Shown one piece after another: positions 713 to 54,300 of a stretch of 64,000 nt of DNA (within the stretch, counting starts at the first letter, position 1; every line of letters starts with the position of its first letter). Source of the DNA: Mobula hypostoma. Its lineage: Eukaryota. The DNA is taken from positions 54,686,001 to 54,750,000 of the forward strand of contig NC_086097.1 of the NCBI RefSeq assembly GCF_963921235.1, in the 5' to 3' direction. The position numbers and the translations under genes were made by a program. The notes beneath the pieces were generated by a model, which saw nothing but the letters and a program-made list of their open reading frames with translations, had not been told where the DNA came from and did no database searches.

Positions 713-1391
713 TTATCTGATTCCATTGGAATCATCAAGCAAAAGGGAACATTTCAGCCTCCTAAATCAAGGACTCCATTAGACTAGCAAGGTTGCAGCG
801 ACAGGACAGCCACTACCAAAACTCATGCCCCTGCAGAAGGGATAAATAGGCTGAGGCAAAAATTAGAAGGAGGTGATTAAAACAAAGGTTAAAAAAATGT
901 GAGAAAAGCTAACAAGTTATATTTTGAGCAAAGTAGCATTGGTATTCAGATTTATAATCAAAGTGTTGAAAAAAAAATTAAAAATGCTAGAAGCATAAAT
1001 TCGGTTTAAAAGAGACTTGGTTACAACCAAAGCACAAGTAGAAGTTTAAATTATTTTTTTAAAAAAACAAAAATCAGGAAAATGGGAGAGGGATTGGAAG
1101 TTGGGCAAACAAGACAATAATTACAGAAGAAATTGAATGACAGAGTGAAAACTGAACCAGTAGAACAGCAACGATGCAAGATTTGGGTAAGAGGTAACCA
1201 TAGACGTCACGATAATAGTGATGCCTGAGGGATGGTGAATCAACATGGAAAGCAGGGAAACACAAAGCAAATAAACTGTATTTTGTTAGAATGGGTGATA
1301 CTTTAAAAGGGGATGCAAAACTACTCAAGCAAAATAATAGATTTCATAAAAGTAATCATATGGTTCTCCAAAACGTGTTTTAGTTCAATGG

Positions 1392-2218
1392 CAACAACAG
1401 GAATTCTGCAGATGCTGGAAATTCAAGCAACACACATCAAAGTTGCTGGTAAACGCAGCAGGCCAGGCAGCATCTATTGGAAGAGTTTCAGTCGACGTTT
1501 CAGGCCGAGACCCTTCGTCAGGACTAACTGAAGGAAGAGTTAGTAAGAGATTTGAAAGTGAGAGGGTGAGGGGGAGATCCAAAATGATAGGTGAAGACAG
1601 GAGGGGAGGGATGGAGCCAAGAGTTGGACAGGTGATTGGCAAAGGGGATATGAGAGGATCATGGGACAGGAGATCCGGGGAGAAAGACGGGGGGGGGGGG
1701 AACAGAGGATGGGCAAGGGGTATAGTCAGAGGGACAGAGGGAGAAAAAGGAGAGTGAGAGAAAGAATGTATGTATAAAAATAAATAACGGATGGGGTACT
1801 AGGGGTAAGTGTGGCACTAGCGGAAGTTTGAGAAGTCGATGTTCATGCCATCAGGTTGGAGGCTACCCAGATGGAATATAAGATGTTGTTCCTCCAACCT
1901 GAGTGTGGCTTCATCTTTACAGTAGAGGAGGCCGTGGATGGACATGTCAGAATGGGAATGGGACGTGGAATTAAAATGTGTGGCCACTGGGAGATCCTGC
2001 TTTCTCTGACAGACAGAGCGTAGGTGTTCAGCAAAGCGGTCTCCCAGTCTGCGTCGGGTCTCGCCAATATATAGAAGGCCACATCGGGAGCACCGGACGC
2101 AGTATATCACCCCAGCCGACTCACAGGTGAAGTGTCGCCTCACCTGGAAGGACTGTCTGAGGCACTGAATGGTGGTAAGGGAGGAAGTGTAGGGGCATGT
2201 GTAGCACTTCTTCCGCTT
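1392..2218 (-). mobile_element. Penelope-like element (Neptune type), 3' part with GIY-YIG endonuclease; left arm of the inverted pair
   Basis: ORF 1817..2143 GVIYCVRCSRCGLLYIGETRRRLGDRFAEH...LEEQHLIF...PDGMN; Cys-rich linker (KCYTCP); pyrimidine-rich 3' region carrying a hammerhead core. Confidence 0.92.
1490..1525 (-). ncRNA. Minimal type I hammerhead ribozyme (Penelope-associated)
   Basis: AGUC-CUGACGA-AGGGUCUCGGCCU-GAAA-CG-UC/GACU: full core, 4-bp stem I (AGUC/GACU), short stem II, palindromic minimal stem III. Confidence 0.8.
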
Positions 2219-2220
2219 AT

Positions 2221-4691
2221 CTTTGTAAAGATAAAGTTGTGGTGGTAGGGGATTTTAATTTTCCATACATTGATTGGGACTCCCATACTGTTAGGGGTCT
2301 AGATGGTTTAGAGTTTGTAAAATGTGTTCAGGAAAGTTTTCTAAATCAGTCTATAGAGGGACCAACTAGAGGGGATGCAATATTGGATCTCCTGTTAGGA
2401 AACGAATTAGGGCAAGTGACGGAAGTCTGTGTAGGGGAGCACTTTGGTTCCAGTGATCATAACACCATTAGTTTCAATTTGATCATGGACAAGGATAGAT
2501 CTGGTCTCTAGGGTTGAGGTTCTGAACTGGAAGAAGGCCAAATTTGAAGAAATGAGAAAAGATCTAAAAAGCGTGGATTGGGACAGGTTGTTCTCTGGCA
2601 AAGATGTGATTGGTAGGTGGGAAGCCTTCAAAGGGGAAATTTTGAGAGTGCAGAGTTGGTATGTTCCTGTCAGGATTAAAGGCAAATTGAATAGGAATTA
2701 GGAACCTTGGTTCTCAAGGGATATTGCAACTCTGATAAAGAAGAAGAGGGAGTTGTATGAAATGTATAGGAAACAGGGGGTAAATCAGGTGCTTGAGGAG
2801 TATAAGAAGTGCAAGAAAATACTTAAGAAAGAAATCAGGAGGGCAAAAAGAAGACATGAGGTTGCCTTGGCAGTCAAAGTGAAGGATAATCCAAAGAGCT
2901 TTTACAAGTATATTAAGAGCAAAAGGATTGTAAGGGATAAAATTGGTCCTCTTGAAGATCAGAGTGGTCGGCTTTGTGCGGAACCAAAGGAAATGGGGGA
3001 GATCTTAAATAGGTTTTTTGCGTCTGTATTTACTAAGGAAGCTGACATGAAATCTATGGAATTGAGGGAATCAAGTAGTGAGACCATGGAAACTGTACAG
3101 ATTGAAAAGCAATTAAAGTGGATAAATCCCCAGGACCTGACAGAGTGTTCCCGCGGACATTGAAGGAGACTAGTGTTGAAATTGCGGGGGCACTGGCAGA
3201 AATATTTAAAATGTCGCTGTCTACGGGTGAAGTGCCGCAGGATTGGAGAGTGGCTCATGTTGTTCCGTTGTTTAAAAAAGGATCGAAAAGTAATCCGGGA
3301 AATTATAGGCCGGTGAGTTTAACGTTGGTAGTAGGTAAGTTATTGGAGGGAGTACTAAGAGACAGAATCTACAAGCACTTGGATAGACAGGGGCTTATTA
3401 GGGAGAGTCAACATGGCTTTGTGCATGGTAGGTCATGTTTGACCAATCTGTTGGAGTTTTTTGAGGAGGTTACCAGGAAAGTGGATGAAGAGAAGGCAGT
3501 GGATATTGTCTACATGGACTTCAGTAAGGCCCTTGACAAGGTCCCGCATGGGAGGTTAGTTAGGAAAATTCAGTCGCTAGGTATACATGGAGAGGTGGTA
3601 AATTGGATTAGACATTGGCTCGATGGAAGAAGCCAGAGAGTGGCGGTAGAGAATTGCTTCTCTGAGTGGAGGCCTGTGACTAGTGGTGTGCCACAGGGAT
3701 CAATGCTGGGTCCATTGTTATTTGTCATCTATATCAATGATCTGGATGATAATGTGGTAAATTGGATCAGCAAGTTTGCTGATGATACAGCGATTGGAGG
3801 TGTAGTAGATAGTGAGGAAGGTTTTCAGAGCCTGCAGAGGGACTTGGACCAGCTGGAAAAATGGGCTGAAAAATGGCAGATGGAGTTTAATACTGACAAG
3901 TGTGAGGTATTGCACATTGGAAGGACAAACCAACATAGAACATACAGGGTTAATGGTAAGGCACTGAGGAGTGCAGTGGAACAGAGGGATCTGGGAATAC
4001 AGATACAACATTCCCTAAAAGTGGCGTCACAGGTAGATAGGGTCATAAAGAGAGCTTCTGGTACATTGGCCTTTATTAATCAAAGTATTGAGTATGAGAG
4101 CTGGAATGTTATGATGAGGTTGTATAAGGCATTGGTGAGGCCGAATCTGGAGTATTGTGTTCAGTTTTGGTCACCAAATTACAGGAAGGATATAAATAAG
4201 GTTGAAAGAGTGCAGAGAAGGTTTACAAGGATGTTGCCGGGACTTGAGAAACTCAGTTACAGAGAAAGGTTGAATAGGTTAGGACTTTATTCCCTGGAGC
4301 GTAGAAGAACGAGGGGAGATTTGATAGAGGTATATAAAATTATGATGGGTATAGACAGAGTGAATGCAAGCAGGTTTTTTCCACTGAGGCAAGGGGAGAA
4401 AAAAACCAGAGGACATGGGTTAAGGATGAGGGGGGAAAAGTTTAAAGGGAACATTGGGGGGGCTTCTTCACACAGAGAGTGGTGGGAGTATGGAATGAGC
4501 TGCCAGATGAGGTGGTAAATGCTGGTTCTTTTTTAACATTTAAGAATAAATTGGACAGATACATGGATGGGAGGTGTATGGAGGGATATGGTCCGTGTGC
4601 AGGTCAGTGGGACTAGGCAGAAAATGGTTCGGCACAGCCAAGAAGGGCCAAAGGGCCTGTTTCTGTGCTGCAGTTTCTATGGTTCTATGGT
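2221..4691 (+). mobile_element. CR1-clade LINE, 5'-truncated ORF2 (part of the APE endonuclease plus RT) with intact 3' end
   Basis: VVGDFNFPYIDW...LDLLL...SDH; RT ORF 3118..4518 (NYRPVSL, QHGF, GVPQGS, KFADD); in-frame stops and frameshifts; ends in (TTCTATGG)2. Confidence 0.95.
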
Positions 4692-5477
4692 AAGTGCTAC
4701 ACATGCCCCTACACTTCCTCCCTTACCACCATTCAGGACCCCGGACAGTCCTTCCAGGTGAGGCGACACTTCACCTGTGAGTCGGCTGGGGTGATATACT
4801 GCGTCTGGTGCTCCCGATGTGGCCTTCTATATATTGGCGAGACCCGACGCAGACTGGGAGACCGCTTTGCTGAACACCTATGCTCTGTCCGCCAGAGAAA
4901 GCAGGATCTCCCAGTGGCCACACATTTTAATTCTACGCCCCATTCCCATTCTGACATGTCCATCCACGGCCTCCTCTACTGTAAAGATGAAGCCACACTC
5001 AAGTAGGAGGAACAACACCTTATATTCCATGTGGGTAGCCTCCAACCTGATGGCATGAACATCGACTTCTCAAACTTCCGCTAGTGCCACACTTACCCCT
5101 AGTACCCCATCCGTTATTTATTTTTATACATACATTCTTTCTCTCACTCTCCTTTTTCTCCCTCTGTCCCTCTGACTATACCCCTTGCCCATCCTCTGTT
5201 CCCTCCCCCCTCCCGTCTTTCTCCCCGGATCTCCTGTCCCGTGATCCTCTCATATCCCCTTTGACAATCACCTGTCCAACTCTTGGCTCCATCCCTCCCC
5301 CTCCTGTCTTCACCTATCATTTTGGATCTCCCCCTCCCCCTCTCACTTTCAAATCTCTTACTAACTCTTCCTTCAGTTAGTCCTGACGAAGGGTCTCGGC
5401 CTGAAACGTCGACTGAAACTCTTCCAATAGATGCTGCCTGGCCTGCTGCATTTACCAGCAACTTTGATGTGTGTTGC
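4692..5477 (+). mobile_element. Penelope-like element (Neptune type), 3' part with GIY-YIG; right arm of the inverted pair
   Basis: ORF 4665..5006 KCYTCPY...GVIYCVWCSRCGLLYIGET; near-identical reverse complement of 1425..2209. Confidence 0.92.
5379..5414 (+). ncRNA. Minimal type I hammerhead ribozyme (Penelope-associated); predicted cleavage after C5410
   Basis: agtc CTGACGA agggtctcggcct GAAA cg TC gact. Confidence 0.8.
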
Positions 5478-7229
5478 TTTAGTTTAATGGGACAGGTTAA
5501 ACATGACTATGTCTGATGAACCACAATTTGATTATAGTGAGCAAATTTAATATTAAGATCAAGAGACTGAAGGGATGAACCACAATGGATTTAAATAAAA
5601 CACAAAAAATAACTAATTACCATCAAGCATACCGGTATATTCATAAAAACCCTGAGACAGCTGTACTTGAAGTAATAACTGGTAAATATAAAATGAATGC
5701 ATGCTTATACAAATCAAAAACTCTGCTTGTGAATTTATGTAACAATGACAATTTAAAAAATAATGTAACATAGAAACCTTGCAAAGGGTATCAAAGCCAA
5801 CACCAACTATTTTACGTATTTGTAGAATGTCACAAAAAAATGACAATTTAAAGACAGGTGCATGTGATAATTAATAACAAGGGTAATATTAAATCAGTAC
5901 ACTTTATTCATATTAAAACTATGGAAGAAAAAAAGGAATATAAAAATTAGTTGAAAGGTATGGTAAATGTATAATGGCAATGGAAAAAAATAATAAGATT
6001 GAAAATAGACTCATCTTCAAGAAATAATGGTTCCTATCCAGAGTATTAAATTAAAAATGTATCAACCATTATACTCCAATTCACCCACAAGTCTGCCTGA
6101 CAGTGTCTCCAGCACAGAAACAGCCTACCATGTTCATCAGGTACCCATTTAAACTAATTCCATTTACCAGTACCTGGCCTCTAGTCTACACTACCTTGGT
6201 GATTCAAGTGCCATCCAGACACTTCTTAAATGTTGTGAAAGTACCACCTCCACTACCTTTTCAGGCAGTGTGTTACAGAAATCAACTACTGTCTAGGTGA
6301 GAAAGCTCTTCCTCACGTTGTCTCTTTACAATTTGCCACTTACTTCCAACTTTCCTATTGTTTTATCTTGTACTATCTCAATGCTCTGTTATAATGAATT
6401 GATCTGTATGAACAGTATACAAGACAAGTTCTTCCATGGTACGTTGGTACATCAGTACACCTGACATTAATAAATAAATTTACCATTTAAAGTTTAGCCC
6501 ATTCTGTTTCTTCCCATATCTGAAATGTTCCTTCATTTTGCATGAACTTTCTCTGCACCTCTACCGCAATCATTTCCTTCCTATTGTGTGCTAACAAGAA
6601 CTGCACCCAGTCTTCCAAAAATGTTTTCAGAGTTTAAAGTTCCAACCAACTTGAACAAAGTTCCTTGATGTTCTCAAATTAACATTTACTTTTTGCATTT
6701 CCTCCAAGCTTTGTCTAATTTTTGGTTCTATTCAATTATTTCAGATTTGAGTTTATTTGCAGGATTTTCTCTCGTTTTACATACACCTTTGATCCCTTCA
6801 CCCTTTATTTTATTTTCTTCATATACAGCAGTTGATTTCCAATTGATTGTGAAAATAAGCCTATCACTTTGACAAACAGTTGAATGACATTACACATTAC
6901 ATTGCAAGAGAGAAAAAAAAACAAATCGTAAGGTGCATATCTGTCTAAATGCTCCACCCACCCCGAAAATTGCAAATCCTACCTGTCAGCCAAGACTAAT
7001 CACCCTTTCATACATTCATTGAGCAAGATTGCTGCAAACCCTTCCATAAAATTCTGTTCCTCATTCTCCAGATTTTATGTCAATTATGTGACCATCTGCC
7101 AAGTTGGTTAAATAACAATGTCATTTGCTCACACAGAAATAAAATAAATATTAACAAATACATTAATATATAGTTCCTCAGCAACACCAATTTAAAACCA
7201 ACTTAGTTATACTTACATTTGCCCAGGAT

Positions 7230-8439: not shown

Positions 8440-9990
8440 CTTCCACTTTCACACTCAACCTATCATCCTTAGCTCTAGTCTCACTCAGTCTCAGTGGAAG
8501 AAGCCTGCCTGCATTAACTCTAACTATACACCTCAAATGTTTATACCCCCATCAAATCTCCCCTCATTCTCCTTTGCTCCAGGAATAAAGTCCTAACCAA
8601 TTCAATCTTTCCCTTTCACTAAGCTCAAGTCCAGGCAACAGCTTTGTAAATTTTCTCTGTACTCTTTCAATTTGATCGATATGTTTCCTACAGATGGGTG
8701 ACCAGAAATGCACAAAAAATACTCCCAAATAGGCCTCACCAATATCTTATACAACTTCAGCATAACATCCTAACTCTATACTCAATACTCTGATTTATAA
8801 ACATGTCAAAACCCTTCTTTTCAGCCCCATCTACCTGAGATACCACTTTCAAGGAAATATGGATCTGTATTGCTGAGGCTTTATAAGGCATTGATCAGAC
8901 TGCATTGGAGTACCGTGAGCAACTTTAGGCCCCTTATCTAAGGAAAGATGTGCTGGCATAGGAGAGGATCCAGAGGAGAACGATTCCAGGAATGAAAGGG
9001 TTAATGTATGAGGAGTGTTTGATGGCTCTGGGCCTGTACTCAATGGAGTTTAAAAGAATGACAAGGAATCTAATTGAAACCTATTGAATATTGAAAGGCC
9101 TAGGATAAAGCGGACATGGAGAGGATGTTTCTTAAAAGGGAAATCTTAGACCAGAGGGCACAGCCTCAGAATAAAAGTACATCCCTTTATAGTAGAAATA
9201 AGGAGGAATTTCTTCAGCCAGTGGGTGGTGAATTTGTGGAATTCACGGATGGCTGTGGAAGCCATGTCATTGGGTATATTTAAAACAAAAACTGACAGGT
9301 TCTTGATTAGTAAGGGTGTCAAAGGTTATGGGGAGAAGGCAGGAGAATGGTTTTGAGAGGACTAACAAATCAGCCATGATGGAATGGTGGACCAGACTCA
9401 ATGGGCCGAATGACCTCATTGTGCCCCCAAGTCTTATGGTCTTATGCCTCTGTTCTACCGTATCCTCAGAGCCTCACCATTTACAGTACAAGCCCTACTC
9501 TGATTGGTTCTTCCAAAGTGCAACACCTTACACCTGTCTGCATTAACTTCCATCTGCCATTTTCCAGCCCAGTTTTCCAGCTGGTCCAGAACATGCTGTA
9601 AGATTTGACAGCCTTCCTCCTTGTCCAATATGCTCACAATCTTGATGTCATCTGCAAATTTACTGACACATAATCATCCAGATCACTGATACAGATAACA
9701 ATGGACCCAACATTGATTTCTACAATACACCACAGGTCACAGGCACCCATTTACTACCACCCTTGGGCTTCTTCTGCTAAGCCAACGTTAGTCAAATATA
9801 CTACTTCATCCTGAATGCCAAGTGATTGAACCTTCTTGATTAGCCTCCCCCACAGGATATTGTCTAAAGTCCATGAAGACAACATCCACTTCCATTCCTT
9901 CATCCACTTTCCTGGTAACCTCCTTGAAATACTCTAAAAGATTGGTGAGGCACTATCTACCACACACAAAGCCATGTTGACTATCCCTTC
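8440..9990. mobile_element. Nested decayed CR1 fragments (minus-strand copy interrupted by a plus-strand 3' fragment at ~8870-9430)
   Basis: LDQLENWAGKWQM...KVLHFGR on minus; CR1 C-terminus and 3' UTR on plus. Confidence 0.75.
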
Positions 9991-12319: not shown

Positions 12320-13795
12320 AGCTCCATTCCTCCATGACCTCCTCTACTGCCATAATGAAGTCAAAATCAGGTTGGAGGAGCAACACTTCATATCCCATCT
12401 GGCATGAACACTGATTTCTCCAACTTCCAGTAATTTCTTCCCCTCCCTGCTTCTCTCTTTTTCCATTCCCCATTCTGGCCATATTCAAGCTTGCTGACGA
12501 CACCACTGTTGTAGGCCAAATCAAAAGTGGTGACAAATCAGCACGTAGGAGGGAGATGGAAAATCTGGCTGAGTGGTGGCATAACAACAAACGCTTACTC
12601 AATCTCAGCAAGACCAAGGAGTTGATTATTGACTCCAGGCAGAGGAAACCAAAGGGCCATGAGCCAGTCCTCCATCAGTGGTGGAGAGGGTCAGCAACTT
12701 TAAATTCTTAGGTGTTATCATTTCAGAGGACTTATCTTAGGCCCAGCACATAGATGCAATTATGAAGAATGCAATGCAGGCCCTCATATTTCCTTTGGAG
12801 TTCGCGACGATTCAATATGACATTTAAAACTTTGACAAGCTTCTACAAATGTGGTGTGGAGAGTATAGTGACTGGCTGCATCACAGCCTGGTATGGAAAC
12901 ACCAATGCCGTTAAATGGAAAGTCCTACAAAAGCAGTAGACACAGCCCAGTCCATCACGGTTAAAGACCTCTCCACCATTGAGCACATCTACATGAAATG
13001 TTGTTGCAGGAGAGCACAATTCATCATCGGGACCCCCCACAACCCAGGTCAGGCTCTCTTCTCCCTGCTGCCTTTAGTAAGAAGGTGCAGGAACCTCAGA
13101 ACTCATACCACCAGGTTCAGGAATAGTTATTACCCCTCAACCATCATGGTCTTGAACCAAAGGAAATAATTTCACTCAACTTCATATGCCCCACCATTGA
13201 AATGTTCCCACAGCCTGACAACTCACTTTCAAGGACCCTTCATTTCAATTTCTCAATATTTATTGCTTATTTATTGATTAGTATTATTTTTCTTGTTGTA
13301 TTTGCACAGTTTGTTGTCTTTTGCACACTGTTTCAATGCCCAAGCTGGTGCGGTCTTTCATTGATTCTGTTATGGTCATTATTCTATTCTGGATTTACCG
13401 AGTATGCCCGCAAGAAAATGAGCCACTGGGTTGTTTCTAGTGACATACTATATACTTCGATAATAAATTTACTTTGAACTTTGTTTACCCTCTCACTTCA
13501 TCTCCTCTTCTCACTTGCCCATCACTTCACTCTAGTTTTTGGTCCCTCTTCCTTCCCCTTCTTCCAGGGTCCACTGTCCTCTCCTGTATCCCCTCCCAGC
13601 TTCTTACTTCATCTCCCTTCCCCCACTCATCTACCTACCCCCCTCACCTGCCTGCTTGTACTACTTCCCCTTCCCCACCTCCTTCTTCTGCCTTCTACCC
13701 CCTTTCTTTCCAGTCCTGTTGGTCTTAGCTCAAACTGTTTGTTGCCCTCTGTAGATACTGCCTGACTTGAGTTCCTCCAGACTTTTGCGTGTTGC
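12320..13795 (+). mobile_element. Decayed Penelope 3' fragment split by a Rex1/Babar LINE 3' fragment (~12480-13483)
   Basis: Flanks resemble 4960-5477. The insert encodes KLADDTTVVG...LNLSKTKELIID and ends in aataaatttactttgaactttg. Confidence 0.8.
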
Positions 13796-24899: not shown

Positions 24900-26990
24900 A
24901 GAACATGGAACAGTACAGACCCTTCCAATACCATCTGCTCCTATCTCTCTTCAAGACTATGGTTAAGGTCAGGGAGTTGTGGTCACTGTCTCTGAAATGC
25001 TCAGCCATCAAGATATCTGACACCTGACCAGATTCATTAACTAGTAGCAGATCCAATATGGCCTCTCCTTTAGTTAGGCTGTCTAAGCATAGTGTCAGGA
25101 ATCCTTCCTGGACACACCTATGATATGCCATCTCATCTGAACTTTCTACACTAGAGGTTCCAATCACTCTTAGGGAAGTTGAAGTCACCTATGACACCCT
25201 GTTATTTTTCCATTTTTTCCAAAATCTGCCTAACGATCTGCTCCTCAGTGTCTCTGTTGCTATTGGGGACAGGGGGTCTATAGAATACTCCCAATAGTGT
25301 GATACCTCCCTTCATGTTTTGTGAAATCTGCCTACCGACCTGCTCCTCAGTGTTTCTGTTGTTATTGGAGTGGGGTGGGGTCTATAGAATACTCCCAATA
25401 GTGTGATACCTCTCTTCATGTTTCTGATTTCCACCCACACTGACTCAGTAACTGATCCCTCCATGACATCCTCCCTTTCTGCAGCTATGATACTATTCCT
25501 GATTAGCAATACCACTTCCCCCACTCTTTCACCTCCCTCCCTGTCCCTTTTAAAACATCTAAACCCCGGGAACATCCAGGAGCCATTTTTGTCCTTGTGA
25601 CAGCAAAGTCTCTGTAATGGCTACAAAGTCGTGGTTCAATGTACTCATCCATGCTATGCATTCAACCTTGTTCCTGATACTTCTTGCATTAACAGATACA
25701 TTTCAACCCATCCAACTTACTGCAGGTATGCTCTATCCACTGCCTAATGTTCCTCACAATCGCTCTACACATTATATCTCCCTTTAAACCAACAGCTCCC
25801 TTATCTGACCTGTCACTCTGGTTCAACCCCCATCAACCTAGTTTACACCAACCCCAACAGCTCTAGCAAACCTGCGTGCAAGGACAATGGTTTCCCTTGA
25901 GTTCAGGTACAGGTCATACCTTTCCCAGAAGATGTCCCATTGATCCACAAATCTGCAACCCTTCCCCCTCCACACCAATTCTACAACCACACATCTGCCA
26001 TATCATCCTATTCTTACCCTCACTGGTATCTGGCACAGGCAGCAATCTAGAGATTACTGCCCTTGAGGTCCTGGTTTCTAGCTTCCTACCTACTCCCTGT
26101 ATTTGCTCTTTAGGATCTCACCCATCTTCCTAACTATGTAAGTTGTACCAACATGCACCATGAGTTCTGGCTGCTCATCCTCCCCTTAAGAGTGCTGTGG
26201 ACTTGATCTAATAAGGCCTAACTTGGTACCTGGGAGGCAACATATCATCAGGGAGTCCCTTTCATGTCCACCTGTCTATTGAATCTCCTATCACCACAGC
26301 TCTCCTCTGATCCCCCATTCCCTTCTGATCCACAGAGATAGACACAGTGCCAGAGACCTGGTCGCTGTGTCTTTCCCCCGGTTGGTCACCCCTCCCACTC
26401 CCCCCACCCCACTATATCCAAAGTGGTTTACTTGTTAGTGCCACAGGGGTGACACTGCACTATCTGCATTTTTCCTTCTCCTGACAGTCACCCAGCTACC
26501 TGCCGCCTGCAATTTAGACATAACTGCCTCTGTAGCTCCTATCATCCAGTTTCATCTCCAGTTCCCTAACACAGTCTGTAAGTAGCTACAGTCAGATGCA
26601 CTTCTCACAAGTGTAGTCATCAGGGACACTGGAGGTCTCCTAGACTTCCCACATCGTACAAGGAACACACCACTGCCCTGGGATTCATTCTCTTTCTATA
26701 ACTAAGCCAATTTTGTATCCAATTTGGCAGCTCCGCTTGGATCCCAGAGAAGCATTCTGGACCAGTCTTCCACATGGGATCTTGTTCAAAAACTTTGCTG
26801 AAGTCCATGTAGGTTAGATCAACCGCACTGCCCTCATCGGTAGATTTTGTTACTTCTTCATTTGTCATACAAAATCTCCGACAAACAAGGCTGTGCTGAT
26901 TATTCCTCATCAATCCCCGAGTTTCCAAGTATAAATTAATCCTATCACTCAGAATGTTAATTTTCTATTAACATCCCTACAACTGACAGT
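24900..26990 (-). mobile_element. Old CR1 remnants (ORF1, endonuclease and an RT piece) with an internal ~102-bp tandem duplication at 25222-25425
   Basis: ESVWVEIRN...LGVFYRP, AILDLLL, SDHNSL, YMDFSK; duplicated aaatctgcct...cttcatgttt. Confidence 0.8.
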
Positions 26991-27464: not shown

Positions 27465-28410
27465 TGCAAGTATTAGTAATGCAGGTGTTAGGTGAAACCA
27501 GGTAAAGGGAGAAGTAGGTGGGTGTTATATGGGTGGGTGAATGCTATAGTAGATCAGTAGAGCTACTAGGACTTGATGTTTCAATCCCTGTGGTAAGTTG
27601 GCACTCTTGATGTTGGCAGTGGGCTTGAAGTGGTGACAAGAAGGGAAAGTAGGTACGTCATCGGGGTCATCAGGTAGGTATTCTCCTTCTTTGACGTTTC
27701 GTTGATAAGCCCACGACGTCTCCAGAGGGCTCAACGGTGCTACCTGGCATCCCAGATACACCCCCTCAGTTCCATACCCTCCTGTCTTCATCTTGCAGCC
27801 CAGTTGTTGTCTTTCCTTTTAATCCAAATCCAATTGCTGCTTTCTTCTGCTGCATTTGACAAGGACTTGATTGCTTGTTGGAGGGAGAGACCCCTCACCC
27901 CCATCTTCTTCAATAGACTGGTGGTAGATGTAGCAACGAATCCCCTGCATCCCACTTCTACAGGGAAAATCTTGGTCTTCCAGCCATTCTGGGCAGCTTC
28001 AGTTGCCAGTTCAGAGTACTTGGCCTTTTCCTTCTCATAAGCTTCTTCGACACCATCTTCCTATGGTACTGTCAATTCCACAACATATGCCAGCTTGGCT
28101 GTTGTGGACCACAGGACCATGTCTTGCCGGTGTGCTGTATCCACAATGTCTGGGGGAAACACGAGCTTTTTTTCTCAAGTCCACGTCCATTTTCCAATCC
28201 TGAGCAACCTGCAGAATGCTTACATCTTTTGATGTTATATGGTGCTCTGGAGGTTGGCCTGCTTGTACAAATCGTGTGATGTGGACATTTCCTGCCGATG
28301 TTTGTGGGAGAGCATTTGTGGTGATTCGCCTCTGTTTCAAGATTGATGCCAGGTGTCTGAGAACTTGGTTATGCCACCAAGTGTACCGCCCCTGGGTGAG
28401 GCTATTACAA
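27465..28410 (-). mobile_element. Hero-like non-LTR retrotransposon (restriction-like endonuclease), 5'-truncated, with 11-bp TSD
   Basis: Across frameshifts and stops: GRYTWWHNQVL...DWKMDVDL...DMVLWS...VELTVP*EDGVEEAYEKEKAKYSEL...GWKTKIFPVEVGCRGF; TSD ttgctatataa at 27454-27464 and 28411-28421. Confidence 0.85.
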
Positions 28411-28649
28411 TTGCTATATAAATCTTCCTGGTAATCTGAACTTTTTTAAAACTGCGTTGTTCAGGTTGCCTTACTTGAAACATGCTCATCAGTAAAAAAA
28501 ATAGACACTGCCACTGAGAAATTCATCATCCCAACCACTGGATTCCACTAGGAAGTTAAGACACCATCTCACCCTCTAGCAGAAATAGGACAGTGCAAAC
28601 TAGAAGTCAATATCCTCACAGATTATTGTAGACTCACTGGAATTGTTTT

Positions 28650-28919: not shown

Positions 28920-30955
28920 TTGATTACTACAGCACATAAACAGGCCTTTTGGCCTATCTAATCCGTGCCGAACTGTTATTCTGTCTAGTCCTATCGCCCC
29001 GCACCAGGACCATGCCCCTTCATACCCCTCTCATCCACGTACTTATCCAAACTTATCTTAGATCTTGTAATCAAACTTGCATCCATCACTTCCACTGGCA
29101 GCTTGTTCAACACTCACACCACCCTCTGAGTGAAGTTTGCCTTTAGGTTTCCCTTAAAGATTTCACCTTTCACCCTTTACCCTTAACATACAACCTTTAG
29201 TTCTAGTCTCAACCTATCTTAGTGGAACAAGTCTACTTGCATTTACCCTATCTATACCCCTCATAATTGTGGTACACCTCTATAAAATCTCCCATAATTC
29301 TCCTATGATCCAGGCAAAAATGTCCTAGCCTATTCAACCTTTTCTGATAGCTCAGCTGCTTAAATCTCAGCAACATCCTTGCAAATTTTCTTTGTGCTCT
29401 TTCCTGTAGGTAGGTGACCAGAACTGCACCCAATACACCCAATTTGGCCTCACCAATATCTTATACAACTTCAACATAACATCTGAACTCCTATATCCTG
29501 ACTTATAAAGGCCAATGTGCAAAAAAGCTATATTTATGACTCTATCTAGCTGTGACATCACTTTCAAGGAATTATGGATCTGTATACCCCTTGTTTGACT
29601 GCATTCCTCAGTACCCTACCGTTCACTGTGCAGACTAGCTTGTCCTACCAAAGTGCATTAAATTTTATCTATTTTTCAGTCCATCTGGAAAAATTGTTCA
29701 CCATGCCCCCCGTCTTGGTGTCATCCACAAAATTGCTGATCCAGGGTGCTACGTTATCATCTGAAACATTAATATAGAGGATAAATTGATCTCTGCAGCA
29801 CACCACCAGTCACAGGCCTCCAGAGAGGCAACCATCTATTACGACCCCATTACGACCCTGTGGCTTATCGTCCTTGATTACGCTCTGCGTCAAGCTACCA
29901 AAGATCATGAGAAGCTTGGTTTTACTATAAAACCAGGGCGAACCAAAAGGGTCAGACCAGTTACACTCACAGATCTCGATTTTGCAGATGACATAGTCCT
30001 CCTCTCTGACCAGATGGAGGAAGCACAGCAGCTACTGACAAAAATGGAAATTGAGTGCAATAAAGTTGGACTTCACCTAAATGCTAAAAAGACAGAGTAC
30101 ATGGCGTTTAACTGTGACGCAGGTACTCTCAAGACCGTAGAGAATGATACCATTAAGAAAGTCTTTGAATACAAGTACCTCGGGTCAAGAATGATGAGTT
30201 CGGAGAAGGACATAAAGATACGGAAGGCGCTGGCGTGGAGGGCTATGAACCCTGAAGGAAATCTGGAAGTCAAACCTGACCAGAGGGCTTAAAAAGAGGA
30301 TTTCATATTAGTCATAAAGTCCATTCTCACGTACGGATGCGAGACGTGGACACTCACCAAGACTATGCGAAAGTCTCTAGATGGTTGCTATACACGAATG
30401 CTCCGGATGGCTCTTGACGTGAGTTGGCAACAGCACATGATGAACGTCGAGCTCTATAACAACCTACCGATGCTCACCACTAAAATCGAGGCGAGAAGAC
30501 TGCAACTAGCGGGCACTGTCTACGCCACCCCGAGCTACCTGCCAGCCCAGTCATCATATGGGAACCCAAGCACGGGGAGATGAACCCTGGGTGCCCTCCC
30601 AAGACTATGGTCAACACGCTCCTAGAAGACAGCAGTGCGGCTAATGTAGAAGAACTGAACACACTGATGAGGGAGAGGGAGAAGTGGAGAGTCCGTGCTC
30701 GTGCCCGACGTCAGCCCCCTAGGCTTGGGTCGACATAGTAGTAGTAGTAGGCTTACCCTACTAAGGCAATATTGAATCTAATTTACTACTTCATCCTGAA
30801 CACCAAGCAACTGAGCCTTCTGAACGAGCTGCCCGTCCGAAGCTTTGTCAAAGGCCTTGCTATAGTCCATGAAGACAATGCCCACAACCTTTCCTTCACC
30901 GACTTTTCTGGTAACCTCCTTGAAAAGCTCTACAAGACTGGTTAGACACAACCTA
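28920..30955 (-). mobile_element. Decayed CR1, interrupted by the RTE-type insertion below
   Basis: LYKILVRP...VQFWSPTYRK; the CR1 sequence resumes after 30756. Confidence 0.75.
29868..30749 (+). mobile_element. RTE-group LINE, 5'-truncated RT and C-terminus, (TAG)n tail
   Basis: LTDLDFADDIVLLSD...GLHLNAKKTEYM...YKYLGS; YGCETWTL; LDGCYTRMLRMAL; apparent TSD ggctta at 29862-29867 and 30750-30755. Confidence 0.85.
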
Positions 30956-32269: not shown

Positions 32270-33295
32270 AGGTACTGTTTACTCACACAAACTGCTGGAG
32301 AAATTCAGCAAATCAGGCAGCATTTATGCATGGGAATAAACAGTCGATATTTTGAGCTGAAACCCTTCATTAGGGCTGGAAAGGAAGAGGGCAGAAGCCA
32401 GAAGGCGGCGATGGGGGAGGGGAAAGAGTACAAGCTGGTAGGTGGCAGGTGAGACCAGGTGAGGAGGAAGGTGGGTGGGTGGGAGAGGGGGATGAAGTAA
32501 AAAGCTGGGAGGGATTAGGTGGATGAGGTAAAGGGCTAAAGAAAGAATCTAATATGAGAGGACAGTGAACCATGCAAGAAATGGAAGGAGAGGAACCAGA
32601 GGGAGGTGATGAGCAGGTGAGACGCGAACACATGAGAGGATAACCAGAATGAAAAAGGAAGAAGAAGGAGGGAGGAGGAGAAGAAATTACTGGAAATTAG
32701 AGAAATTGATGTTCATGTCATCAGGTTGGAGCGTACTAGACAGAATCCGAGGTGTTGCTCCTCCAACCTGAATTTGGCCTCATCATGGCAAAATAAGATG
32801 ATGAGAGGCATTGATCGTGTGGATAGTAAGAGGCTTTTTCCCAGGACTGAAATGGCTGACACGAGAGGGCACAGTTTTAAGGTGCTTGGAAGCAGGTACA
32901 GAGATGTCAGGGGTAAGTTTTCTTACACAGAGAGTGGCGACTGCATGGAATGGGCTGCTGGCGACGGTGGTGGAGGTGGATAGGTACCTCCTGGATAGGT
33001 ACATCCTTAAGAGACTCCTGGCTAGGTACATGGAGCTTAGAAAAATAGAGGGCTATGGGTAGCCTTAGGTAATTTCAAAGTAAGTATACGTTTGGCACAG
33101 TATTGTGGGCTGAAGGGCCGACATTGTGGTGTAGGTTTTCTATGTTTCTATGGCAGTAGAGATGGTCATGGACAGACATGTCAGAATAGGAATGGGAAGC
33201 TGAATTGAAATAGGTGGCCATTGGGAGATCCTGCCTTTTGCAATGGACAGAGCAGTAGCGCTCCACAAAACAGCCCCCCAATCTGCACTGCTTTA
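32270..33295 (-). mobile_element. Older Penelope 3' fragment with a nested plus-strand CR1 (32791-33149, TSD atggca)
   Basis: RQDLPMATYFNSASHSYSDMSVH matches the GIY-YIG C-terminus; TSD at 32785-32790 and 33150-33155. Confidence 0.85.
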
Positions 33296-34040: not shown

Positions 34041-34422
34041 ATTTCATTTCTAATGAAAAACGTGTCTTAAAAATACATCCTAATATATACAAGTATGTCC
34101 AAAAACTTTAAGGATCAAAGTTACAAATTGTGGACAATCTGACCTTACTTCTATAACATTACTTTTTTTGAAGATATTTTGTGGTAGAATTAAGACTTCC
34201 CAAATTTGCAACATAATTCAAAATATTTGCTTACTGTAGTTACAATTTGGACAATTTGAAACATTTGTAGCAAAACATGAACACAAGAAAATCTGCAGAT
34301 GCTGGAAATCCAAAGCAACACACAGAAAATGCTGGAGGATCAGCAGGTCAGGCAGCATCTAAAGAAAAGAGTAAACAGTCAAACCCACATAATACATGTG
34401 CTAATGGTTATAATTCTTTCAC

Positions 34423-48580: not shown

Positions 48581-50683
48581 CTGAAAGAAATTTATAGTTT
48601 AAAAGTGTGATTGAAACATTCCTATGCTTCACCCTCTGCACTATTACAAAATAAAAACCTGGTGATTATAATAACTGTAGTCTCAAATAATTATATTTAT
48701 TTTCATTAAATATAAAGGATTGAAATAGTTTCCTTTGTTAATGGATCAAATATCTCAGGACATATTCTCTGGCACACTTGAGAAATGACAGAAGCTGAAC
48801 CACAGAAATTGTTCCTACTTATTTCCTCTATGGAAAACTGTTCTTGAGTACAGGCGACCCCCGGGTTAGAGACATTTAGGTAACAGAATTTTGCCTTTGT
48901 AGAATTCACAAACCATGGCTCAAAAATTTGAAATACAAAATAAAATTTGGTCTCAAGAAATCTGTGCCAAAAAACAATCAGTATCAACAGCATTTCTTGA
49001 CAGTTGTGCAAACAAAGCAGCTTCACTTTAAAAGGAATAAATAAATCTCACATGGACTTTTTATTTCAGGAATGCAACCAACACACCTCCACCAGCCACA
49101 ACTCCATAATCATTAACTGGTTTTTGTGTGGAGCAACTACATCAGTGCATGTCTGAATATTATCTGGGTCTTGTGCATGTAGGTATGGATTGCCTCAATT
49201 TGAGGATGTTCAGATAGAAGCAGCTTTCATAGAAACCGCAGCAAATATCCCCACTTCTGGCCTCATAATGGGAAAGGATTATGGATGAGACAGCAGAAGA
49301 TGTTGAGCTCAGGACAGTGCCCTTATGAACACCTGCAGTAACGTCCTGTAACTATGATGATTCCTCTTCAATAAAGACATCTATGAATGAGGTAGGACTC
49401 TAACCAGGCTTTACCCCCTCCGCGTGCCTGTTGACTTCAATTTGACCTGGGCTCCCCAGTATCAATTCAGTAAAATGCTGCCTCACTTCATGCATGCCAA
49501 TCTTAGGTCCACATCTGGACTAAGGTTGTGATAAGATCTGCAGCTGTAACCCTGCCGAAGCCCAAACCAGTCAATTGACAGCAAGTGCCTTTTCATAGCA
49601 AATTAGTGTCACTTTCCACGACTTTGTCAGTGCTGTACAGAACACCAATCATATGATTATATAAGCAGATTGGATTGGTTTTGCAATTGTGGACAATATA
49701 TACCTGAGTAATTTTCTACCTTAGTGAATAGTTACCAATGATGAAATCAATGAGTATCAAGGGGAAAAATAACACTTCTGCCCCATGTGTAGGTAACTAT
49801 TGGCATAACCTTGGTAGAGGGGTGGTTACTTTTGGTGTAACATCAAACTTCCATCACCAAGAATGGGGATATTCCTCAACATTCTTCTCCCATTAGCTGC
49901 TTAATTATCTATCACCATTTATGACCAGATTTGCCAGGCCAAGAATCTATTCTTATGGGAATGCATTAATTGTACTGCAATTTCATCAGGCTGACACCTT
50001 GTTTTCTTGGTATATCTGGTATTACACTGGCATGTTCCTACATACTCCTTGTTAGAACCAAATACAATTGTTGGGCTTGATTATAATGGAATAGTGCCAG
50101 GCCATGATTTTACAGATCGTGGTAATCCACATTTGTCTAGTTAAGGGTCTACAGCTGTTTCAAGCTACCATGTCTGACTAAATTCTGCCACACCTCACAA
50201 TCAAAGATATCCTTACTGCTAAGTCATTTGCATAATGTTTCTTAGCACATTCAAAAAATTTTCAAACTGGTTACAGAAGTACATATTCCCACACAAGAAG
50301 TTGTGCTCATTTAAAATCAGTAGTTCCGAATGCAAGGAAACAGAAAATATATTTTACGGATATAGTAAGATGGATTTCTTATTCCCCCTTTAAAAACTGT
50401 TAAATCGCCATTCCTGATTCTTTAATCAAAAAATGACATCCAGTTTACTATTCTTCACCACTGTGGTTTAAATTATCATGAATAATGAAAATAAATTAAA
50501 AAAGCCAAAAGGATGGATGCAACACACACAAAATGCGAGAGGAACTCAGCAGGCCAGCCAGCATCTATGGAAAAAAATACAGTCGACATTTCCGGCCGAA
50601 ACCCTTTGGCAGGACTCATCCTTGTCTCTTCTGAAGATGGATGCATTGATATTTTCACAAAAAAAAATCATTGCTCCTCATAC

Positions 50684-52999: not shown

Positions 53000-54300
53000 G
53001 CCCAATATCCGTATGATTTCCTTCAGAGGAGAACTTGCCTAACAGGTTGGTTGGAATTCTTTCAGGAAGTAACAAGCAGTTACAAAGAGTCAGTAGATAT
53101 TGTTTACTTGGATTTTCAAAAGGTCTTTTGAAGGTGCAATACGTGAGGCTATTGAGCAAGGTAGGAGTCCATGGTAGTACAGGGAAAGGTAGAAGCATGG
53201 ACAAAAGACTGGCTAGCTGGCAGAAGGCAAAGATTAAGAATAAAGGGGGCCTTCTCTGGTTGACTGACAGTGACTAGTGATGTTCCACGGAGTTCAGTAT
53301 TAGGTCCCCTACTTTTCGCGTTATATTTTCATGATCTGGATGATGGAACTGACGGTCATGTGGCCAAGTGTGCAGATGATACAAAGATAGGTGGAGAAGC
53401 AGGTAGTGCTTAGGAAGCAGGGAGTTTGCAGAAGAACTTGGACAGACTGGGAGAACAGACAAAGTAGCAGATGGAATCTATTGCAGGGAAGTGTATGGTC
53501 ATGCCCATCGGTAAAAGAAATAAAGGTGTAGTCTACTTTTTAAATGGGGAGAGAATTCAAAAATTGGAGGTGCAAAGGTACTTAGGGAGTCCTAATGCAG
53601 AACTTCCCTAAGGAGTCTTAGTAGCAGTTAGTCACAGAGGCAGTCGAGTAACGTAAAACTTCACAGTACCAGCGACCAAGGCTTGATTCCCACAGCTGCC
53701 AGTACAGTAATGAGTTTGTACATTCTCTCCATGCCTGTGTGGGTTTCCTCCAACATTCCAAAACAAAAGATATACGGTTAATTTGTCACTTGGAAGTATT
53801 TGGGTGGTGCTGGCTTGTTGGACCAGAAGGACCTGTTACTGTGCTATAGCTCTAAATAAAATAAAATTAAAGTAAGGAGGCAAAGTAATGTTTGCATTCT
53901 CTTCAAGAGTTCTTGAACATAAAAGCAAGGATGTAATACTGAGGCTTTACAAGGTGTGGTCATAAGTGCAAGAGATTCCGCAGATGCTGGGAATCTTGTG
54001 CAACACACAAAATGCTGGAGGGACTCAGCAAGTCACAGGGTATTTATGGAAGAGAACAAACATTCGATGTTTTGGGTCGCGACCCTTCATCAGGACTAGA
54101 AAGAAAGGAGGCAGAAGCCAGAACAAGGTGAGGATGGGGAAGGAGTACAAGCCGGCAGGTGATTGGTGAGGACAGGCGAGGGAGACGGTAGATTGGTGCG
54201 GGGGGGGGGGTTGAAATTAGAAGCTAGGAGGTGACAGGTGGAAGAAATGAAGGGCTGAAGAAAAAATCTCACAGATAGGATGGTGGATTGTGGAAGAACA
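53000..54300. mobile_element. Old plus-strand CR1 with a nested SINE (~53630-53870), followed by a minus-strand Penelope 3' end (~53965-54300)
   Basis: YLDFQK and ADDTKIGG motifs; SINE core; gcagatgctgg...gcaacacacaaaatgctgg...gacccttcatcaggact. Confidence 0.75.

Follow-up and report, generated by a model that had tools for sequence, protein, structure and literature searches.

How does a long interspersed nuclear element (LINE) come to lie exactly at the tip of another retroelement's inverted repeat? The question is raised by positions 1379-5490 of a 64-kb stretch of the Mobula hypostoma genome (contig NC_086097.1, positions 54,686,001 to 54,750,000; hereafter the window), in which two inverted arms of a Penelope-like element, a CR1 LINE between them and a direct repeat enclosing the whole were all confirmed, much as a first-pass annotation of the sequence had described them. 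The outer unit is supported as one Penelope insertion, and the locus, a single one, is a readable variant of the known Penelope insertion pattern; all its parts are dead. As for the CR1, we lean, with somewhat better than even confidence, towards its own reverse transcriptase (RT) having primed at the Penelope apex, where a DNA end lay open either during the sealing of the insertion or soon after.

The arms are near-identical and stand head to head, with their 3′ ends pointing outward. The left arm (1392-2218, minus strand; initially set at 1425-2209 and corrected here) is 5′-truncated and shares 97% identity with the right arm (4692-5478, plus strand), with 18 substitutions in 784 aligned columns and 3 gap columns. 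The unit is enclosed by a 13-bp target site duplication (1379-1391 and 5478-5490, plus strand), the copies of which match at 12 of 13 positions, and the first 2 nt of the right copy are common to the end of the right arm. The ends of the element hold no better direct repeat than this pair, already proposed at first pass; when random site pairs were searched over a space of equal size, a 12/13 match turned up in 5 of 3000 draws. The 33 nt beside the left duplication (1392-1424, minus strand), which the right arm does not carry, align with the termini of older copies found at 34280 and 53969 in the window and are recognised as the Penelope tail. These two older copies stop with the tail, and a third, at 50519, stops at the shorter end point used by the right arm. 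An optional tail of 30-40 bp at one end is described for Penelope insertions (PMC3846280, PMC8557442), and its length has been matched to the spacing of two internal start sites of the RT (PMC11167929). The older Penelope-like fragments of the window (12325-12507, 32301-32784, 33154-33286, 34280-34380, 50519-50616 and 53969-54267) are 71-81% identical to the arms over their BLAST-matched parts, and none of them extends into the apex region.

Both arms are cut off inside the nuclease domain, downstream of where the RT would lie. A remnant encoding the C-terminal part of a GIY-YIG endonuclease, recognised by its profile match, frame and homologues, is open in the left arm (1817-2218, minus strand; PF01541, E=1.2e-4), and the right arm carries a stop at 5004-5006. 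PF01541 scores at or above cut-off in both arms, and a Cys cluster precedes the YIG, which is a criterion for endonuclease-bearing Penelope-like elements (PMC8557442). The nearest named relatives of the nuclease part are ray proteins, from Hypanus and Hemitrygon, with 80-86% identity over a portion of it (66 matches among 69 candidates). A pattern search for the core motif identified a minimal hammerhead-like motif in each arm (1490-1525, minus strand; 5379-5414, plus strand), with an extra nucleotide after position 9 and a U at position 11.1 in both cases; the G10.1-C11.1 pair is reported to be highly conserved (PMC4209133). Rfam gave no match in the window, these motifs included, and the ribozyme fold differs from the predicted lowest-energy fold of the arm motif. 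The motifs appear hammerhead-like by core pattern, and cleavage would be a candidate function only. Judged on sequence, the nuclease, the hammerhead-like motif, the inverted partner, the tail and the duplication, i.e., all testable features, assign the outer insertion to the endonuclease-bearing Penelope class, and the unit appears to agree with the published Penelope layout in every testable respect.

An inverted 5′-truncated copy, a one-sided tail and a target duplication are documented for endonuclease-bearing Penelope elements in Adineta Pen2a_Av (PMC3846280) and in a general scheme (PMC8557442). The Mobula unit resembles these in its head-to-head arms, one-sided 33-nt tail, whole-unit duplication and near-symmetric inner junction, but differs from them in that both arms are truncated in the nuclease domain and a 2.47-kb CR1 occupies the junction. 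Its duplication, at 13 bp, also departs from the 8-10 bp published in the same two papers. A non-autonomous DNA transposon with long terminal repeats (LTRs) was considered and rejected, the arms being RT-truncated retroelement ends with a one-sided tail.

When the CR1 is excised in silico, the arms close into a hairpin with a 9-nt loop and without a missing base, which places the CR1 exactly at the apex. The right arm is nested in the span of the left arm at both ends, the left arm having 9 extra native inner nucleotides; the arms thus stop at nearly the same internal point, as first noticed. The first-pass annotation had also considered that the CR1 inserted later at the centre of a palindrome, with a deletion; since the arms meet with a 9-nt loop, that deletion is unnecessary. 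A scenario in which the CR1 entered a lone Penelope copy that was then copied by read-through was rejected on the grounds that the native sequence of the left arm runs uninterrupted across the CR1 junction point. Under an assumed exponential truncation, two independent truncations at most 9 nt apart are expected in 0.2-0.8% of cases, and a later insertion at a random position would have a ~0.6% chance of falling on the apex. Because matched truncations and a random apex hit are both improbable, every model needs a special apex.

The passenger (2227-4691, plus strand) is a 5′-truncated CR1 of 2.47 kb, comprising the end of the APE endonuclease, the RT and the 3′ untranslated region (PF14529, PF03372, PF00078). 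Its endonuclease part is 95% and 90% identical to Mobula hypostoma proteins (10 matches among 202 candidates), and LINE proteins of bird and turtle, which we take to be CR1, are ~50% identical to the passenger. The passenger is disrupted by one inserted nucleotide near 2507, a stop codon at 2699-2701, the loss of ~25 nt near 3106 and a frameshift near 4460. The 3′ end (4601-4691, plus strand) is intact and includes a hairpin, with a predicted fold of -31.8 kcal/mol computed without a shuffle control, and two octamer repeats (4675-4690). A hairpin plus octamer is the hallmark of CR1, the RT of which is reported to recognise the CR1 3′ end (PMC4316615). The passenger thus carries an APE endonuclease and an RT in open reading frame 2, the 3′ hairpin plus octamers and a 5′ truncation, as expected of a CR1.

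At the right junction, the last octamer and one T adjoin the arm with an ambiguity of 1-2 nt, and the CR1 3′ terminus therefore does lie flush with the 5′ truncation of the co-oriented arm. The joint between the apex and the CR1 5′ side (2217-2234) combines a 2-nt overlap, a filler of 6-12 nt and an 8-bp inverted repeat around a 2-nt loop (2217-2224 with 2227-2234); such a hairpin lies near 7 of 1500 random sites. CR1-native sequence begins at ~2227-2231. The bases before this point are not CR1-native, because the homologues read differently at the joint: the 4 closest of 10 have C-R/K-K-H/Q-K-V, versus L-C-K-D-K-V in the passenger. The filler corresponds to bases 2219-2230, and a 9-mer of it recurs in the arms at 1913-1921 and 4980-4988, ~290 nt in (381 of 20000 shuffles). 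In form, such a filler is similar to what snap-back end-joining yields (PMC5728401).

The CR1 was initially said to show no target site duplication of its own. None longer than 2 bp is found, but the TA present at 2218-2219 and at 4691-4692 could be either a 2-bp duplication or a mere overlap. Among the zebrafish LINEs, ~40% of genomic ZfL2-2 copies have extra 5′ nucleotides and ~80% show 3′ microhomology, with blunt joins and target truncations being recognised outcomes (PMC2666801), and ZfL2-1 is reported to produce 5-bp duplications (PMC4245944). As self-inserted LINEs can join blunt or truncated, the fact that the CR1 lacks a duplication argues only weakly for a single event. By analogy with ZfL2-2 and ZfL2-1, which belong to the L2 clade and not to CR1, the CR1 junctions would match those of ordinary self-inserting fish LINEs. 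The Mobula CR1 shares with self-inserted ZfL2-2 copies (PMC2666801) and with break capture (PMC4516963) an exact 3′ end, a 5′ truncation with extra nucleotides and a blunt or tiny target change; it differs from both in its target, which is the tip of another retroelement's palindrome.

The relative ages of the parts bear on whether they arrived together. CR1 decay was measured as private amino-acid changes at columns where at least 3 close homologues agree, which used 488 of 737 codons, the other 249 being dropped for too low an agreement or coverage of homologues. Private changes occur at 18 of the 488 columns (3.7%), an upper bound given that some may only distinguish subfamilies. Between the arms, 10 of 130 codons are different, i.e., 3.8% per lineage, and the CR1/arm decay ratio is 0.96 (95% confidence interval 0.42-2.3), the two measures being not strictly alike. 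Clearly different ages, which the first-pass annotation had counted as contrary to its single-event proposal, are not seen: the CR1 and the arms agree in age to within about two-fold, which is compatible with one event or a quick succession and argues against a much later arrival of the CR1. The arm measure itself calls for some caution. Fourteen of the 18 arm differences fall in the inner 340 of 787 nt (4692-5031 versus 5032-5478; binomial p=0.003, with the cut picked post hoc), and the Kolmogorov-Smirnov test for this inner skew gives p=0.019, or 0.45 once clusters are merged into 12 events. The skew, not significant after merging, possibly reflects conversion between the arms or repair-linked mutation near the apex, and such conversion could lower the arm divergence measure. 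Four differences lie within 7 bp ~50 nt from the apex, and none lies over a 210-bp stretch further out. On an absolute scale, arm decay is ~1.15% per arm. A relative (organism B) shares 0.54-0.55 of the right-flank words in four runs, which translates into ~1.9% divergence; the right flank is present in 8 of 11 listed runs from 2 studies, and the other four of these 8 may come from the source itself. Arm decay is thus about half of the divergence from organism B, which may hold an empty, intermediate or full site.

The arms also share changes that tie them to each other. Both have the U at hammerhead position 11.1, in place of C11.1, which is likely a CpG change, and both have an H in the nuclease tail where 55 homologues have R in 23 cases, H in 13 and C in 11, a pattern of CpG decay. 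Arm-specific CpG changes number 5 at 24 sites, a sixth being excluded because the homologues suggest that its non-CpG state is ancestral, and two parallel hits would have a probability of ~0.009. This low chance points to one template, and both arms likely derive from a single already-mutated one, via fold-back or from one source locus. An origin of the arms from two active source elements was rejected, since the codon differences (10 of 130, a stop among them) are what neutral decay would give.

In the reading that we favour, a Penelope-like protein would have made a 13-bp staggered cut and then produced a head-to-head truncated pair from one template lineage, one arm stemming from the long RT start site, with the tail, and the other ending at the short one. 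This mechanism is modelled on published work; the Poseidon protein, in particular, cuts and extends both strands in vitro from two internal start sites (PMC11167929). The apex would have been an open or easily broken end. It may still have been unsealed during integration or, a slightly more probable variant, it may have broken soon after, as the tip of a ~790-bp near-perfect palindrome. Long palindromes are known to break at their tips. A CR1 particle would have primed its own reverse transcription on the 3′-OH at the inner end of the right arm, with copying beginning at the natural 3′ end of the RNA and halting after 2.47 kb, and end-joining would have linked the CR1 cDNA to the left arm via a short templated snap-back filler. 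As a spacer between the arms, the CR1 probably helped the palindrome to survive.

Priming by the CR1 RT is favoured for explaining the matched arm ends through Penelope alone and the ordinary LINE junctions without any new enzyme activity. The nested right arm is expected if the apex formed from the arms themselves, the equal decay (18/488 versus 10/260) fits a short delay, and breaks are known to capture retrotransposon cDNA in mouse zygotes (PMC4516963). Several points nonetheless weigh against it. No sequence feature records which RT made the CR1 cDNA, and the equal age and the enclosing duplication are just as compatible with one event driven by Penelope. Given the ~0.6% chance of a random apex hit, a preferred break at the apex is required, which is an assumption for rays. 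A CR1 duplication of more than 2 bp is absent, the ZfL2-2 figures come from an L2-clade element and not from a CR1, the two changes shared by the arms could be fixed in a subfamily, and there is one locus only.

The first-pass annotation had proposed a single event in which the Penelope machinery trans-mobilised the CR1. In this scenario, reverse transcription by the Penelope RT would have started at both target ends, run past the 5′ end of an ~800-nt Penelope RNA and continued by a jump to the 3′ end of a CR1 RNA, the CR1 cDNA end being then joined to the other arm. We regard it as doubtful. One part of the proposal stands: there is one Penelope insertion, priming at both ends fits the behaviour of Poseidon in vitro, and the ages are equal. 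The copying of the CR1 by Penelope does not fare as well, the junctions being those of a self-inserting LINE, which the machinery of CR1 itself fully explains. The single duplication enclosing all parts and the CR1 3′ terminus flush with the co-oriented arm would both be expected, and what defines a template switch, i.e., a direct fusion of co-oriented parts within one duplication, is indeed seen for the CR1 and the right arm; the left arm, however, is inverted and joined through filler. Enzymatically, a Poseidon protein can extend the two strands and primes weakly from the 3′ ends of RNA (PMC11167929), foreign sequence between Penelope repeats has been mobilised before (PMC3846280) and LINE template-jump chimeras exist (PMC2104539), but no template jumping by a Penelope RT was found in the passages of the literature cited here. 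The model must make a further assumption to account for the matched inner ends, which have a chance of 0.2-0.8%, as two independent primings leave the arm stops, 9 nt apart, unexplained unless the template RNA ended there. The changes shared by the arms could mark just such a truncated source copy, with an RNA ending near the apex and giving matched truncations.

That the CR1 was instead borrowed as DNA, either because a polymerase folding back copied a CR1, present as free cDNA or in the genome, and then went back to its own arm, or because Penelope copied an older composite in trans, strikes us as improbable. The nested right arm is what an interrupted fold-back predicts, and intron-containing cargo has been published (PMC3846280), but a genomic template is not expected to end exactly at the CR1 3′ end, and donor flank is absent; the CR1 is no more decayed than the arms, and no second copy of the composite exists within the 64-kb window. 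We consider it very improbable that the apex position is a coincidence, the CR1 being an ordinary later insertion, or that the layout is an assembly artefact. The locus was flagged for its striking look, CR1 copies are dense in the window and the junctions are known from the assembly alone; yet the chance of an apex hit is ~0.6%, the arms have different ends and 18 differing sites, which a duplicated assembly would not produce, and the enclosing duplication is coherent.

Composite insertions with some of these traits are known. The non-ribosomal peptide synthetase (NRPS) gene and the host DNA mobilised between Penelope pseudo-LTRs (PMC3846280) likewise consist of foreign sequence within Penelope repeats and one duplication. 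The NRPS cargo lies between direct repeats, has kept its introns and has a proven empty site, whereas the Mobula cargo is a LINE with an exact 3′ end at an inverted junction, known here without an empty site. In LINE template-switch chimeras, including the tripartite WEIRD/Mg-SINE/MGL (PMC2104539), copies of different RNAs are also fused within one duplication, and the LINE drives the process from the 3′ end and picks up other RNAs. In Mobula, by contrast, Penelope supplies the 3′ part, another part is inverted and the LINE would have been carried as a passenger. Neither a LINE at the apex of a Penelope insertion nor a Penelope RT copying LINE RNA was found in a survey of the accessible main-text literature, made mostly at the level of search listings. 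The building and sealing of inverted Penelope insertions are themselves described as unresolved (PMC8557442, PMC11167929), and a passenger with an exact RNA 3′ end would mark the apex as an open, primable end. Ray genomes hold many such Penelope insertions, which offers a countable test. If LINEs alone are enriched at apexes, Penelope palindromes would be break-prone LINE targets that the LINE may stabilise; if all RNA classes occur there, Penelope RT template jumps would be a route of RNA-to-DNA capture. It is a tentative and rather unlikely idea that the Penelope RT, which is related to telomerase and usually initiates within its own RNA, made an in vivo jump to the CR1 RNA 3′ end, which would make this a cross-class LINE mobilisation and the apex a general trap for cellular RNA in the germlines of sharks and rays. 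No effect on the host is evident from this single dead locus.

A 17-nt arm motif gave 14 prokaryote matches and 1 viral match, none longer than 26 nt, which were rejected as Penelope relatives, such short matches being due to chance; in protein-seeded scans, none of the 226 metagenome, 229 prokaryote and 4 viral stretches held a relative. One of the chance matches, in a stretch of a bacterial metagenome-assembled genome, has an inverted repeat at its start (1-275) with ~108 bp per arm and a ~55-bp spacer, unrelated to Penelope. RT proteins 66-71% identical to the passenger CR1 are filed under Klebsiella and Proteus on contigs of 1.6-1.7 kb, and are probably vertebrate contamination. Several ray gene models (ATP synthase subunit C3-like, VKORC1L1, P-selectin ligand) contain Penelope nuclease or CR1 RT sequence, through either exonisation or annotation error. 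The window is rich in CR1 copies: an older CR1-like 3′ portion at 1-704, ~700 bp to the left of the unit, shares 71-74% identity with the copy at 8867-9387. Neither of two further open frames (28035-28445 and 29765-30292) is like CR1: one, lying among minus-strand CR1 pieces, has a FADD motif that is presumably RT-like, and we take the other to resemble the C-terminal part of another non-LTR element. At 25222-25423, there is a 104-bp tandem duplication in 2 copies with an 89% match.

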